From Octopus vulgaris (lineage: Eukaryota), in NCBI GenBank assembly GCA_951406725.2, contig OX597826.1, positions 26,908,001 through 26,972,000 of the forward strand: 64,000 nt of DNA, given 5' to 3'. Of this stretch, positions 1-34,759 are shown one piece after another; the first letter of the stretch is position 1; every line of letters starts with the position of its first letter. Both the position numbers and the translations under genes were made by a program. Under the pieces are notes generated by a model that worked only from the letters and a program-made list of their open reading frames with translations, was not told where the DNA came from and made no database searches.

Positions 1-2288
1 GGGCAACAAAGCCACCATTCGGTCTCTGGTAGACGAACAAGGGCGCGAATTGCTCGATCCCAGCAAGATGTGCTAGGCATTTCAGCGGCACTTTTCCCGA
101 CTGTACGGGACGAATGGCGAGCGTGAACGCAGGGTGGACTTCAGTGCCTACCTGCACAGCCTGCCACAACTCTCGGCAAGAGAGGCAGAGTGCTGCGAAG
201 GTGCCATCACGGCGGTGGATGTGCGGGACGCAATGGCAGAATGCTCGAGGGACAAATCGCCGGGTTTGGATGGTCTGCCCTACGAGTTTTACAATTGTAT
301 GCCAGACTTGTTTGGAGACGTCTTGGCAGCGGTATACTACAACTGGCAGCAAAACGGGAGTATATCTGGTTTTGTGAGTCGAGGATCCGTAACGCTGCTG
401 AAGAAAGATCCAAACAAGGGGGACATTATAGATAACTTTAGGCCAATCACCCTGCTCAATGCAGACCTGAAAATTTTGACCAAGGTGTTAGCCAAGAGGT
501 TGGTGCTTGTCATCGAGAAACTGGTCGACAAGGCGCAAACTTGCGCCGTGCCGGGCCGGAGTATCCATGGCAACCTCCATCTGATGCGCTGCATCATAGA
601 CAGAGTAGTTAAGGAACCTGGCATGGGTGGGGCCCTGATCAATTTGGATCAATCGAAATTTTCGATAGGGTAGACCATCGATACTTGGAGGCAGTCCTGG
701 GAGCGGCCGGTTTCGGTCCCGTCTTCTGCGGCTGGATAGCTGCCTTGTACAGAGGTATCCGTTCGGTAATTCGCGTAAATGGTCATCTATCGAGACCTTT
801 CGACATTGCACGTTCGGTCCGTCAGGGATGCCCCCTCTCGTCGCTTCTATACGTATTGACTCTCGAGCTACTACTGCGGAAGCTGGCGACTCTGAGGGGC
901 ATCCCGCGAGAATTGGGATTCAGGACGAGTGTGTCTGCATACGCGGATGACGTCACTGTCATAGTGTCAAGCCACGAGCACATCCAGCTGGTCGGCCAGA
1001 CACTGAAAGACTACGAAGCGGTGACAGGAGCGAAAATCAACCGGGAAAAGTCAGTGGGCTTGCGGCTCGGCACCTGGAGAAGCAAGCCCATGCCGTCCAC
1101 CAGCATCTCCGTCGTGGGACGCTGGACAGACAGCCCGGTTGAGTTGCTCGGGGTCTGGTTCGATCCGGACCTCCAAATGGAGAAGAACTGGAACGAGATA
1201 ACGAGTAGGGTGATCACTCTCGCCCAGAAATGGGCCGAGAGGAAACTGTCCCTAAAAGGTCGGGCGGAGGTGGCGAACACGTACATCGCGTCCATCATCT
1301 ACTACCGCCTGACCGTCGTACCTTGTCCCGACCCTACCATCACCAAACTAGAACGCATTCTCTTCCGCTTCTTGTGGAAAGGATGCGTCCCGATGGTCAG
1401 GCGATCTATTTGCTGTCAACACCTGTTAAAAGGAGGGCTGGGCATGCCGTGGTTGATGATGCGCAGACACGCGCTGAGACTGCGACATCTCCGGCTCTAT
1501 GTAGACGACGGTGAACAGGTGTGGTCGCCGTTTGTGAGGCACGCGTTCCCGCAGCTCGTCTCCTTGACAGAACTGCAGTCGTGGATCAAAAAGAGGCCGA
1601 GGAAGGACGAATGGCACCGCGAGTATCGCGTTGCTCTCAAGCAACTATGCCGTCCCGGGTCGACCTTGAGTGACTTCAACACAACCCAAGCATTCTATGG
1701 GGGATTAATGGAGGGGAGGTATGACGACGATCTTGGGGCGAACCTGGGCGCCGACGAGGAATACCTGACCCACCTGTCTGAGATGACGTTCGGGCCTGGA
1801 CTTATGGACAACTTCCAGAGATCCCTGACCTGGCAGTGCTACCGAGAAGCGCTACCCGTTCGGTTTAAGCTATATAGGCATTGCTCGAGAAACACGGGGC
1901 CGACCTGCCCGAGATGCAGGCAGGGCGACGAAACCGTTCTGCACGCAGTGCCTAACAATCTCCGACCTGTGGTCTTATGTTGAACAACTACTGTCACGTG
2001 TGGGACGTCGGTTTATCAGCCGAGTCTATCTTTAACATCGTCACGCCTCCTGCTTTCAAACGGGAAGGAAGAGCTATTTTTATCATACTTGTGGCTATGG
2101 CGAAAGAATGTATCTGGTGGACGCGCCTGAAAGGATTAGAGACAAACACTTTCCTCTCTGGTCAATCTCTCATCAACTTCTTCAAGTATCACTTGAAAAG
2201 GAAAGTGAGAGTAGAGAGGCAAGTTTTGTCTAGCGAATGCTTTAAAAAATTGATGGGTGAATGTAGCAAGGATGGCACGTATGAATGA
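1..2288 (+). pseudogene. Disrupted ORF2 reverse transcriptase of the L1/Tx1 element
   Basis: Motifs KSPGLDGLPYEFY, NFRPITLLNADLKILTKVLAKRL and LDQSK (ORF 134-673); SVRQGCPLS, AYADDV, KINREKS and CPRC..ETVLH (ORF 685-1983); C-terminal piece 1977-2288. Frameshifts near 660 and 1950-2010, and a TAG at 74-76. Confidence 0.9.
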
Positions 2289-4776: not shown

Positions 4777-5309
4777 TTTATTTATATATCATATATATAC
4801 GTATGAGATAAAAAAAAATGCAAACAGGATGGTATTAGTCTCCGTTGACGAAACTTTTATTATTTCATTAAATCGATAAAAATGGTTTAGTGGACATGCC
4901 ATAGAGAGTGAACAATATAATGTTTTTCGAAAACGGCTTCTTTCAGGAAAAAAATTATTGGAAGAGAAAGTGTTTTGCCAACTCTAAGAAGAATTGGCTG
5001 CCGATTTCTTTAGTCTATAGTGAGTGTCATTCAGTTTTCTAGTTTGCAGCAAAGATTATTACATTTCATGAGAAGAAAAGAAAAACGATTTGCAAGTCAT
5101 TTGTGGCTCTTCTGAAAGGCAATATTCTTTTATCCCTTAAGTTTCAGGGAATGTAAATACTGAAACACCGGTTGTCTAGCACAAACAGATACCCAACCAA
5201 CCAGCCAAAAACACACACATGCACAGAAACATAAATGTACATAAATGCACATAAACATAAATACAGGAATACGTACATACCTACGTACATGCATACATAC
5301 ATGCATACA

Positions 5310-5656
5310 TATGGGGAGGAGACTCCGTTCGATCATGAAGGACCATGGGATTGCACCTAGAAAGTTACCCTCCGAAGCCCAAGTCCAGGCAAATTTGTTC
5401 ATGGAAGGCCAACAGTCACCCATGCACACCAGCCTTCCCTCTCCACACCGCTGATGTTATCGAAGGGAAAGAGAAGGGGCCTATACAGCTTGGCACCAGT
5501 GACGTCGCAACTCATTTCTACAGTTGAGTGAACTGGAGCAACGTGAAATAAAGTGTCTTGCTCAAGAACACAGCACGCAGCCCGGTCCAGGAATCGGACT
5601 CACAACCTCACGATCGTGAGCTCGACGCTCTAACCACTGAGCCATGCACCTTCACA
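5310..5656 (-). mobile_element. tRNA-derived SINE (head B, tail Z)
   Basis: Minus strand starts tgtgaaggtgcatggctcagtggttagagcgtcg...gtccgattcc, then cttgagcaagacactttatttcacgttgctccagttcactca; the head is shared with 35265-35586. Confidence 0.8.
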
Positions 5657-5907
5657 ACATACATACATACACACACACAAACACACACACACGCACACAC
5701 AGACACACACAGACATACACACACTCACACACACATATATATAAGGAAATAAACGCAGGATAATGCTAATAATACACCATGAACAGGATAAACTACCCAT
5801 ATTTTACAGAAAAGTCTCTCGTGGCCGCTGACACATTTTTCAGCAAACTGTTTTATCCTGTTCTAAAGCAAAAGTTGCTTGTTTACTTTTATGGTAATTC
5901 AAATTTA

Positions 5908-5962
<55 letters not shown>

Positions 5963-5964
5963 TC

Positions 5965-6272
5965 CTTTCCCGAAATGCAATTCGTAAAAGTCTGCCATTT
6001 ACCGGATGTAATATTTGTAAAGTAACCCATGTGCGTCGTTGACGTTGGTCAGTTGGCTGCCCGGCTTTGACGATGTAGGGTCGTTTATTTATGATACGTC
6101 CAGACTTGCTGATGAATACAGAGGTATGAAATCACAGGTGATACAAGTCCATATTTTTTAAATGTCTTACTTTGAAAAATTGCATTCGGTTGGATTAGTA
6201 AAATTTTTGGTAGAAATGACTAATTTTGTCCCTCTTAGCGTGTGGCATGTATGTATAATAATGCCCTCTATA
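5965..6272 (+). mobile_element. Diverged partial copy of the 480-bp hammerhead repeat
   Basis: Colinear with 34386-34712 (gccatttaccggat, ttttttaaatgtctt, tttgtccctcttag, taataatgccctctata); flanked on both sides by (TA)n. Confidence 0.85.
6103..6149 (+). ncRNA. Type I hammerhead ribozyme motif
   Basis: GACUUG-CUGAUGA-AUAC agag GUAU-GAAA-UCAC ag GUGA-UA|CAAGUC: intact core and three helices; predicted cleavage after 6143. Confidence 0.85.
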
Positions 6273-6277
6273 TATAA

Positions 6278-6354
<77 letters not shown>

Positions 6355-6591
6355 AAATATCAGAGAGTTATTTCACTTGTGATGTAAACGAATAGGTATG
6401 CTGGGTAAGTGCTGTCGTTGTTCGACCATTAGGTTCCAAGATCACAGCTAAAGCTGGATCAAGGGATGCGTGTTAATTAAATTATTCTAAATGAATGACT
6501 TGATTTACTCGCTCTGCCTTGGTTTTGATTTTTCCTCTAATATAATATACTATAATATATATATATATATATGTGTGTGTATGTGTATGTG

Positions 6592-6631
<40 letters not shown>

Positions 6632-6639
6632 AATGTCGG

Positions 6640-6790
6640 ACAAGCTTCTTTCCCTTTCCGACTATCTCATCTACTCTTCAGGCTTAGGTTGTCTACCAGC
6701 TGTAGTAGAAGACTCTTGACGAAGATGTGACGCAGTGGGACTGAAATCGAAACGATGTGGTTAGCAAGCACGTTTCCTAATTACACAGTA
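6640..6790 (-). mobile_element. SINE family 1, degenerate 5' part
   Basis: gtagtagaagactcttgac...cgcagtgggactgaa...atgtggttagcaagc matches the family 1 head in reverse. Confidence 0.6.
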
Positions 6791-8267
6791 ATGTGCTAAT
6801 TGCTGGGGTGTCACTTCCCACGATGTCACTTCCCACACACTTCCATTTGATGACATTCAAGAGAATATATCTCTATGATTCTAGGCACGGTCAGATAGAA
6901 CAGACACGGCAATTGAAACAGAGTCATTGATGATATATTGCAGAAATGTTCATATTTCAAGAAGTTAGACTTCTTTAAATGGTTTTAGCTAAAAATGGGG
7001 AGTGACTGGAACCGTTATCTTCTAACGTGCTCCGAGACAGATTTATGTACCATATTATCCGGCACACGGGTCGAAATTGTCCTACCAATATTTGCAATCA
7101 AAAATGGTATGTCAAGCTATGTGCCGAGTCAACTTTGGAGAATCAAAAACTCCATGGGAAATGCACACGAATTTGGAAAAATAGTGACGATGTTTGAACA
7201 TTTACACTACCTGTTTACATTAAATACTAAGTCGACTTGTATGACGGAATATACTGTAGTTCATATTCGTATCGATCGCCTTACATTATCAGGTGAAAGT
7301 ATAAATTACCAGTGAGCTGATTTAGGGAAATGTGTTATTAGAAGATATGATTTAAGAAATTTGAATCATATGGAGTGGGTGTTTATGCTGAGGGGGTGAT
7401 ATATCATGTGTATGATGTAAAAAGAAAACAGACCCGGAAGCAGACTGATTTACGTGGGTATACGCGGATGTGGCATGTCGCTTTGTATTTCAGAGGAGAA
7501 GCTATTCTGGAGGTGGCTGAAATGGAACGTAATGTATATTAGAAAAAGTAAGGCCGTGTGGATAAGTGGAAGTGACTATGCTGTTACGTAGCTCAGTAGA
7601 GAAGAGGAAATCACTGTAGATATAGCGGTGGTAATAGCATAGAGCGTAGATTAGAAAGAAATATGGCTAGGGTGGAGGTGGATAATTGGAGGTGGTGCAC
7701 CAATGAGGAGTTCAGTGGAGGAGAGGAAGTTGTAGTGACGGTGAAAATAAATGAGAGTGTACATTAGAAGAAGTAAGGCGACCTAAACTTTTAATCATGG
7801 CGAAAATTCTTTGGCTGTGTCCGTAGATTTGCATTCATTTCATGTATTAAACCGCTCCACATCCCCCCCCCCAGATCGCCACCATTCCATGAAACCGTAT
7901 GAACGATATAACTATCCATTTCTTTTCTTTCTTCTTAACATTATTGGTCTGTATGCGTGTGTAAGAAAACCTTTTAAATAAAGATATCGGTGATGACCAG
8001 GCGATAGATGTATATTTTATTTACTACAATACTTTCAATGCGTTATTCTCCAATCGGCAATCGTTATTTTTTTTTGCTTTTATATGTATATATTTTTTTT
8101 CTCATTTCTTTTTTTTTTTCTTTCCCTCTTTTTTCCTCTTCCAGAGTGCAGGTCGGGGGACGAAGGAATTCGGCTCTGTCTTTTATCTATATTCTGACCG
8201 CTATGATCACGAAATCCATTCACTTGATGAGTAGTAGATAAGGGGTAGGAATGTAATAATAATGATG

Positions 8268-11589: not shown

Positions 11590-12782
11590 ATTGGTTTAAA
11601 ATTTTGGCACAAGGTCAGCAAGTTGAGTGTAAGAGGGTGGGGTCGATTACATCTACCGCAGTGTTCAACTGTTGCTTATTTTTATCAACTCCGGGATCTT
11701 TTCGGTTTGAACGGCAGTTTTTAACATAATTTCTAGGTAACTAAAAAATTTTAAACTTCGTATACTGGTAGAATGTGTTTATAAAACATCTTTTTCTCTT
11801 GGCTTTATTGGGAAAATTCTATAGTTTGTATGATATTTGCTGGTTTTTTTTCTTCAATTTCTGCAATTTCAACCAATCAATGATGTCTATTCAGGTGAAA
11901 ACGTTCTGTGCCGTATGAATATGTCCCTCGTTTAAGAAACAGATTGGGTTTATTTACATTTCTGAAGAAAAAAGATACCCTCCACTACCCCTAACCAACC
12001 CTAAACCTAACCCTAACCCTAACTAACCCTAACCCTAAAACAGATTGAAATGCAATAGATCGATACTAGGGTCATAATTATGGGTGACAATTCTATATGA
12101 CACCGCTAGAAAAACTGCCGTTCAAACCGAAAAGGTGAAATGCAAAAGTTGAACCGGTGGCATTTGAACTCAGAACGTAAAATCGGTAAAATGCCGCTAA
12201 GCATTTGTCAGATCCAGTAACGATTCTGCCAGCTGGATGCTTCTCAAATTAGAAATAATAATCCTTTCTATTATAGGCACACGGGACTAGTCATTTGTAT
12301 TGGACTAGTCGATTACATAGACTTCACCGACTGGTACTTAATTTATCAACCCCGAAAGGATGAAAGCCAAAGACGACCTCGGTGAAATTTGAACTCAAAA
12401 CGGACGAGTATTGATTCCGGAGCTATGAAAGGCAAAGTCGGCCTCGGCGAAATGTGAACGTAGAACGTAAAGCTGGAAAAAATGACTGATAATTTTGTTG
12501 GACACATTAACGATTGTAACAGCTCACCGACTTCCATTTTCTTAAGTAATAATTATATTATTGGTTTCAAATTTTGGCACAAGGCGTGCACTTTTGGAGA
12601 TGAGGGAAAGTCGATTACATCGATACCCAGAACTGGCATTTATTTTATCGACCCCGAAAAGGATGAAAGTTAAAATCGACCTCGATGGCATTTCAACTAC
12701 GAACGTAAAGACGGACGAAATACATGTAAGTCTTTTGCCCGGCGTGGTAACGATTTTGGCAGCTCGCTGCCTTCCAACTCCT
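11590..12782 (-). mobile_element. Cluster of about four CORE-like SINE family 2 copies, the first interrupted by a MITE
   Basis: Repeated ttttggcacaagg..gtcgattacatc..tttatcgaccccgaaaggatgaaaggcaaagtcgacctcgg..tttgaactcagaacgt blocks. Confidence 0.8.
11694..12135. mobile_element. MITE with about 25-bp TIRs and internal (CCCTAA)n tract
   Basis: cttttcggtttgaacggcagttttt / aaaaactgccgttcaaaccgaaaag; CCCTAA-like repeats at 11988-12038; interrupts a SINE. Confidence 0.8.
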
Positions 12783-33262: not shown

Positions 33263-33313
<51 letters not shown>

Positions 33314-33570
33314 TTTAACAATTAAGGATAACCTCTTAATAAGGGATCTTAACAAGAAATTATCGGGTAGTTAGCGTGAAAACCTCATAAAAGAAAAGAA
33401 TTCGAAAATAATTTTTTTCTCTTGAACAAATTAATTATATCTATATTGTATAGAGGGCATTATTACACATAAATGCCTCACACTAAGAGGGACAAAGTCA
33501 TTACTACCAAAATTATACTAATCATACCCAAATGCAGTTTTTCAAAGCAAGACATTTAAAAAATGAATTT

Positions 33571-33628
33571 AGTTCTGTATCACCGTGATTTCACATTCAA
33601 CTTACGTCTTATGATCATCAGCAGAACT
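33571..33628 (-). ncRNA. Type I hammerhead ribozyme, copy 1
   Basis: Reverse complement reads AGUUCUG-CUGAUGA-helix II-GAAA-UCAC g GUGA-UA|CAGAACU. Confidence 0.8.
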
Positions 33629-34050
33629 GATTCTGAACACATCATAAATAAACTACCAACCTTACGTAGCGAAGACGAACAGACAACTGCTCACTCCGGC
33701 CAAGCACATGGAATGTTTATAAATCATATATCCGGTAAATGGCGGGCTTTTTACGAACTGCATGTCGGGTAATAAAAAGTATTTCGGAATAAGTTTAACA
33801 ATTAAGGATAACCTCTTAATAAGGGATCTTAACAAGAAATTATCGGGTAGTTAGCGTGAAAACCTCATAAAAGAAAAGAATTCGAAAATAATTTTTTTCT
33901 CTTGAACAAATTAATTATATCTATATTGTATAGAGGGCATTATTACACATAAATGCCTCACACTAAGAGGGACAAAGTCATTACTACCAAAATTATACTA
34001 ATCATACCCAAATGCAGTTTTTCAAAGCAAGACATTTAAAAAATGAATTT

Positions 34051-34108
34051 AGTTCTGTATCACCGTGATTTCACATTCAACTTACGTCTTATGATCATCA
34101 GCAGAACT
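34051..34108 (-). ncRNA. Type I hammerhead ribozyme, copy 2
   Basis: Identical to copy 1, 480 nt away on the same strand. Confidence 0.8.
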
Positions 34109-34529
34109 GATTCTGAACACATCATAAATAAACTACCAACCTTACGTAGCGAATGATTAGTATAATTTTGGTAGTAATGACTTTGTCCCTCTTAGTGTGA
34201 GGCATTTATGTGTAATAATGCCCTCTATACAATATAGATATAATTAATTTGTTCAAGAGAAAAAAATTATTTTCGAATTCTTTTCTTTTATGAGGTTTTC
34301 ACGCTAACTACCCGATAATTTCTTGTTAAGATCCCTTATTAAGAGGTTATCCTTAATTGTTAAACTTATTCCGAAATACTTTTTATTACCCGACATGCAG
34401 TTCGTAAAAAGCCCGCCATTTACCGGATATATGATTTATAAACATTCCATGTGCTTGGCCGGAGTGAGCAGTTGTCTGTTCGTCTTCGCTACGTAAGGTT
34501 GGTAGTTTATTTATGATGTGTTCAGAATC

Positions 34530-34587
34530 AGTTCTGCTGATGATCATAAGACGTAAGTTGAATGTGAAATCACGGTGATACAGAACT
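34530..34587 (+). ncRNA. Type I hammerhead ribozyme, copy 3 (inverted arm)
   Basis: agttctg ctgatga tcataagacgtaagttgaatgt gaaa tcacggtga ta cagaact; predicted cleavage after 34580. Confidence 0.8.
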
Positions 34588-34708
34588 AAATTCATTTTTT
34601 AAATGTCTTGCTTTGAAAAACTGCATTTGGGTATGATTAGTATAATTTTGGTAGTAATGACTTTGTCCCTCTTAGTGTGAGGCATTTATGTGTAATAATG
34701 CCCTCTAT

Positions 34709-34759
<51 letters not shown>

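Follow-up and report, generated by a model that had tools for sequence, protein, structure and literature searches.

Our analysis indicates that a 64,000-nt stretch of the Octopus vulgaris genome (contig OX597826.1, positions 26,908,001 to 26,972,000; hereafter the window) carries a non-LTR retrozyme, and we are highly confident that its mobilisation is of the Penelope type. The repeat is likely a non-autonomous Penelope-like element (PLE), which probably relies on the reverse transcriptase-endonuclease of another PLE, acting in trans, for its insertion into (TA)n tracts. The retrozyme class and its link to PLEs are already published; the new part is the insertion evidence in a mollusc retrozyme, and the return of animal retrozymes to the genome is a stated open question in papers from this field. 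The initial annotation of this DNA had proposed a candidate retrozyme, and that identification is borne out by the hammerhead anatomy, the young dispersed copies and the tandem non-coding units.

The locus and its predicted hammerheads

The repeat has the period claimed for it, 480 bp, which is exact and in direct orientation over window positions 33309-34153. The head-to-tail arrangement had been extended to 34716; it holds as far as 34153, from where the unit is inverted on the plus strand. The locus consists of two arms joined 5'-to-5'. The left arm (33309-34153, minus strand) contains 1.76 units, and in a numbering that starts from the predicted cut its 5' end lies at unit position 385 (34153) and its 3' end at position 269 (33309), the long site. 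The right arm (34153-34716, plus strand) contains 1.18 units and runs from unit position 53 at 34153 through 480 to the short site at 136-142. The arms overlap by one base (34153) and form a perfect inverted repeat of 564-570 bp, and the outer ends of both, i.e. both 3' ends, abut (TA)n tracts (33277-33311 on the left, 34712-34756 on the right). A transcript spanning both arms (window 33436-34722) would form a perfect hairpin of ~570 bp, a possible source of small RNAs.

Two minus-strand hammerheads with cuts 480 nt apart had been described, and both are present, with H17 at 34058 and 33578: hammerhead 1 at 34051-34108 (predicted cut 34058/34057) and hammerhead 2 at 33571-33628 (predicted cut 33578/33577). 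A third copy, on the plus strand at 34530-34587 (predicted cut 34580/34581, H17 at 34580), had been overlooked together with the inverted arm, and all three hammerheads are identical. The sole complete cut-to-cut unit (33578-34057, minus strand) has 33% GC and was rightly called non-coding, having no stop-free frame of 100 aa. The 480-nt unit is absent from the Tandem Repeats Finder rows shown for the window, and a tRNA search of the window found none.

All the elements that the initial annotation had listed for a full type I hammerhead were found: helix I AGUUCUG/CAGAACU, the CUGAUGA and GAAA core, helix III AUCAC-G-GUGAU and the AUA triplet. The motif displays the type I features, namely CUGANGA and GAAA cores, an NUH site and three helices with helix I open. 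The G10.1-C11.1 pair at the base of helix II is missing in family A, to which the unit belongs, and in sister family B, which both have U.U there as noted earlier for the unit; sister family C has G-C. A helix-checked descriptor finds four cores in the window versus a mean of 0.02 (maximum 1) in 100 resampled windows, the fourth core belonging to sister family D (6102-6148). The Rfam check that had been proposed left the motif unrecognised: two scans (to E 5 and E 10) returned no hammerhead match, only microsatellite-driven noise.

The lowest-energy fold of a single motif is not the hammerhead (-13.3 kcal/mol for the alternative fold versus -8.7 kcal/mol for the hammerhead; z -1.7 to -2.0). 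A double hammerhead reaches -30.9 kcal/mol versus twice -8.7 kcal/mol, the best dimer fold being -32.9 kcal/mol, and the hammerhead is predicted to act as a dimer, a mode already published for other hammerheads (in passages of PMC4209133, among other sources). The dimer cleavage suggested earlier is in part supported, by this folding energy and by the invariant helix III palindrome. A helix III of 4 bp with a 3-nt loop is a possible alternative geometry.

Conservation of the core was judged between families, since dead genomic copies decay evenly, and here the earlier expectation of a preserved core holds: sister families B, C and D retain CUGANGA, GAAA and the AUCAC/GUGAU palindrome, and helices I and II are altered. 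When families A and B are compared (two of three units alignable), 7 of 8 core positions and 14-15 of 15 from GAAA to helix III are identical, as are 3 of 7 in helix I and only 41-43 of the 89 nt upstream. Across 12 sequences of families A, B and C, so that the compensatory counts take in two sister families, 91.7% of cells are paired versus 20-39% in slid-alignment controls, and 7 of 15 pairs are changed on both sides; the covariation shuffle test on these sequences is inflated by related rows. Helix III does not vary among the 12, an invariance that is partly built in for families B and C, which were picked with a pattern fixing helix III. Family D, found with a looser descriptor, keeps the palindrome with a centre of 2 nt. 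Three common variants inside the hammerhead occur within family A, at N7 (three bases), in the helix II internal loop and in loop 2.

Family A is a young, dispersed, non-coding repeat. The genome-wide copy-number search that had been suggested gave 1674 candidate places for the unit, and the 40 that were scored contain 208 matches on many contigs, 92-100% identical (full units 96-100%) and in arrays of up to 7.6 units. The helix III pattern of the hammerhead matched 378 times versus 0 for the reversed pattern, and 84 of the 100 matches listed belong to family A by reading; an 11-nt pattern (4583 matches versus 2595 in the control) was too short to use for sizing the family. In sequencing runs under six organism codes, 0.42-0.83 of the unit's words are present. 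The RNA-side data are contigs of runs guessed to be RNA, in which circle and tandem are indistinguishable, and one such contig of 509 nt (run X1) covers one whole unit, as either tandem DNA or a circle would give. Another contig (run X17, organism D) matches window 33584-33715 on both flanks with 130 nt skipped, which hints at a further sister unit. Family B (L113-L116, L236-L265) is older, with units of ~490-510 bp, copies mostly 86-93% identical and 3282 candidates, and it shares the two end positions of family A. Family D is present in the window at 5962-6278 (plus strand), 75% identical to the unit and with a ~459-bp period; its hammerhead has helix I GACUUG/CAAGUC, this copy stops at the short site, within (TA)n, and the top ones among its 1950 candidates are 94-100% identical.

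Insertion ends and the RNA template

Copies of family A stop either 142 or ~269 (~262-270) nt beyond the predicted cut, always adjoining (TA)n, while their 5' ends are variable and lie anywhere in the unit. Among 26 two-armed loci, 21 combine a short with a long end, two end near those sites, one is short+short, two are irregular or unread and none is long+long; the short+long combination thus accounts for 21 of the 22 classifiable loci (p 5e-6 at even odds). The 32 one-armed loci comprise 20 long, 9 short and 3 other ends. The two arms of one locus belong to one subfamily. Arms that share at least 350 positions (nine loci) differ from each other at 1-7 positions versus means of 8.9-15.1 to other loci, in counts that leave out three of the loci read for ends (one overlap, two decayed), and two locus-private variants extend across both arms.

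Of 76 5' ends, 6 lie within 10 nt of the predicted cut, which is no pile-up (p 0.10), and the 480/1 joint is variable in 0 of 48 full units. Because there are two fixed 3' ends and an inverted arm, copying starts inside the unit and crosses the cut site. The absence of a scar at the cut site and the internal position of the two 3' ends leave two possible templates, a circle and an uncleaved multimer; a linear cut-to-cut monomer by itself cannot yield these insertions. The initial annotation had a PLE enzyme copying the RNA into (TA)n, which stands as far as Penelope-type mobilisation is concerned but, given the internal 3' ends, fails for a linear monomer alone. The invariant 480/1 joint and the uniform arrays also led us to reject template jumping among cut linear monomers.

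We lean somewhat towards a circular template, which is favoured over the multimer because long uniform arrays persist; one array (L045) has zero variable sites over 5.3 units. One would argue that the same element and enzyme class could do with an uncleaved linear multimer, in which case the hammerhead would act late or depend on protein and no circle would be needed. Such a template agrees with the misfolding of the monomer, with the partly shared variants within seven arrays and with the Anolis hammerhead mutants that insert normally (reported in passages of PMC11167929). However, with random 5' truncation we infer that arrays copied from linear multimers could only shorten; the persistence of near-uniform 5-7.6-unit arrays speaks against this, and we consider such a template rather unlikely. 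The seven variants that are present in only some units of an array fit multimeric templates or later duplication.

If the template is indeed a circle, tandem transcripts would self-cleave through double hammerheads to yield a monomer, which would then be ligated; RtcB-type ligation of retrozyme RNA is treated in passages of PMC7229834. A Penelope protein, probably a dimer, would nick both (TA)n strands, and the same RNA would be primed twice, so that one cDNA starts at ~269 and the other at ~142. Each cDNA would run round the template through the ribozyme site to a random stop, and the two would be joined 5'-to-5' into a two-armed insertion, one-armed copies being the result of the loss of one cDNA. 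The end rule suggests how the 'tails' and inverted copies of Penelope elements arise.

The Penelope-like partner and competing explanations

The candidate partner is the large, young L081 family of Penelope-like elements, in which the best 150 of 4986 candidates are 97-100% identical and many have open frames of 1310-1312 aa. By eye, the L081 protein (1312-aa ORF) contains DKSG, YVDD, a CX4CxxC linker and C-terminal GIY-YIG motifs, and the element appears Neptune-like, since these by-eye motifs agree with the C-terminal GIY-YIG and CX2-5CxxC given in passages of PMC8557442. Pfam had no match on the whole L081 protein; it gave a weak RVT_1 match on L040, where a separate Penelope-like element of this family lies close to one unit copy as an independent insertion. 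The repeat at L081:5199-5945 carries a minimal hammerhead-like motif whose core, by eye, is changed to CUGAUGC. Again by eye, the two ends of the element fall within the first codons of its own ORF, as in Anolis PAc.

The L081 family likewise occupies (TA)n tracts, and its two 3' ends are separated by 56 nt. We examined 22 of its two-armed insertions; 21 could be read, 20 of them short+long and one long+long. A shared target, a shared architecture and a near-strict rule of one short and one long end, found in the retrozyme and in an intact PLE alike, point to Penelope machinery. The short-end motif ACAATAT is common to the unit and the L081 element, and their long-end motifs are TTAAACTTA and TTAAACGTA, respectively; both motifs end in a TA that the (TA)n target imposes, and among 138 further (TA)n edges of the window, taken as background, the motifs occur 0 and 1 times. 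The unit and the L081 repeat do not align (best E 8.2), and families B and D, although their ends lie at homologous sites, lack the exact end motifs. An 11-nt word common to unit positions 268-278 (window 33780-33790) and to L081 near 5867, mostly kept in family B, is located on one side of the ends in the unit and on the other in L081, and it was given no weight as partner evidence.

Whether the L081 family itself is the partner we regard as evenly balanced. The partner could instead be another, unsampled Penelope-like family, perhaps one with a terminal repeat ancestral to the unit, and we take this possibility seriously without preferring it. It would account for the failure of the unit to align with L081 DNA, in Xenopus, matches between retrozymes and PLE terminal repeats are frequent (passages of bioRxiv 10.64898/2026.07.22.740005), and a published O. 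vulgaris annotation counts 31 Penelope-like families as recently active (PMC13282606, Table 1). However, the physical linkage to a PLE RT/GIY-YIG ORF that such an origin brings to mind, and that had been put forward for checking, did not appear: none of 40 long loci read for ORFs joins the unit to a Penelope ORF, the L040 neighbour being a separate insertion, and the single copies and sister-family loci have no joined Penelope ORF either. Both end motifs fit L081, and in partner and distant searches that scored top candidates only, which leaves room for another family, the distant protein query put the L081 family on top. At a first look with stricter settings most of its hits were L081 copies, and the one divergent Penelope hit checked (L266) does not match the unit.

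Two further explanations dispense with the Penelope enzyme. A satellite or minisatellite growing by DNA recombination, with a vestigial hammerhead, would explain tandem arrays and some partly shared variants, but it is very hard to reconcile with dispersed loci whose 3' ends are fixed at (TA)n and whose 5' ends vary, with inverted arms and with compensatory changes between families. Still harder to credit is mobilisation by an L1/Tx1-type LINE in the manner of a SINE. Several loci do show such a LINE joined to the unit, yet it lies within the unit and is flanked by short duplications; the unit ends at (TA)n without a LINE-like tail, the two-end rule is that of the Penelope element, and the loci read for ends include no unit copy that ends in a LINE tail at a non-(TA)n site. 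Returning to Penelope-type mobilisation, its fullest form is tentative. One Penelope dimer would use two fixed start sites on one circular RNA to make a two-armed insertion, the youngest family would mimic both L081 start motifs without sharing the repeat, and an L1/Tx1-like LINE would in turn hit a 26-bp spot, giving a three-level chain of parasites. The retrozyme unit and the L081 protein form a concrete RNA-protein pair for an in vitro test.

Known relatives and neighbouring elements

Non-LTR retrozymes, in the passages of Cervera and de la Pena (2020, PMC7229834), are tandem low-GC units with demonstrated circles that co-occur with PLEs. The octopus repeat is like them in its low-GC tandem unit with one type I hammerhead each, the lack of an ORF and the co-occurring PLEs, and the U.U at the base of helix II is also found there in axolotl HHR_Amex2. 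The wider retrozyme traits are present as well: non-coding tandem units that are a few hundred bp long and below 50% GC, one hammerhead each and dispersed copies. Contrastingly, its unit is 480 nt versus ~170-400 nt, its helix III, unlike theirs, consists of a palindrome of 5 bp around a 1-nt centre, and their circles are demonstrated whereas the octopus circle is putative. The main text of PMC7229834 has 0 matches for 'inverted', 'cephalopod' and 'squid', and its passages on retrozymes contain neither fixed internal ends nor inverted arms.

Partial tandems, an inverted 5'-truncated copy, (TA)n targets and a tail often at one end only are shared with Neptune-type PLEs as portrayed in passages of Craig et al. 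(2021, PMC8557442), where non-autonomous head-to-tail PLE families are noted in Chlamys. The octopus repeat possesses the traits of a non-autonomous PLE, i.e. 5' truncation, partial tandems, an inverted 5' copy, a tail at one end and a microsatellite target. Unlike the Neptune-type PLEs it has no ORF and a canonical instead of a minimal hammerhead, and the tail measures 127 nt in the retrozyme and 56 nt in the L081 element versus 30-40 bp in theirs.

Two internal RT start sites and an AT-rich target are likewise known from the Anolis Poseidon element PAc (Frangieh et al., 2024, PMC11167929). According to passages of that paper, both strands are cut and extended, a protein dimer is predicted, two start sites are used in vitro, and uncleaved RNA is the main substrate, hammerhead mutants being inserted too. 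In PAc bulk data the start sites are alike between strands, whereas the octopus arms of one insertion almost always differ.

Vertebrate retrozymes are non-autonomous PLEs in the portion of bioRxiv 10.64898/2026.07.22.740005 used here, and our class conclusion for octopus is the same. In that portion the Xenopus link rests on co-occurrence and repeat homology with the mechanism left open, while the mollusc link consists of an insertion signature without repeat homology; one of nine Xenopus dimers cleaved in vitro. For cephalopods, the giant squid paper, in the part available, counts 235 Rfam hammerheads without analysis, and the O. vulgaris repeat paper with its one supplement (PMC13282606) does not mention the hammerhead. 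A literature search, with Repbase, Dfam and most subscription papers and supplements outside it, returned no cephalopod retrozyme and no per-insertion count of short and long ends. Family A may be present, unnamed, in the O. vulgaris repeat library.

The LINE that is joined to the unit is L1/Tx1-like, with a zinc-knuckle ORF1 and a 1133-aa APE-RT ORF2. This LINE and a shorter relative are joined to the unit only at positions 368-393 (L031:2457-7742; L101:4754 and 5253-6951; L157/L200; L154; L196; L197). A genome-wide search that covered this part of the unit found seven LINE tail junctions, at 368 (three), 372, 377 and 388 (two), with 0 in the control. Three of 30 LINE 3' ends read are joined to the unit, one being the query, and three of four LINE copies with one 5' motif join unit position 393 exactly. 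The clustering may reflect region-specific targeting or 5' homology capture, and some LINE copies may have been carried as cargo. Elsewhere in the window, a 456-aa frame at 613-1983 (plus strand) with an RVT_1 match is a LINE fragment, and a short degenerate (CCCTAA)n-like tract at 11985-12039 is telomere-like and interstitial.
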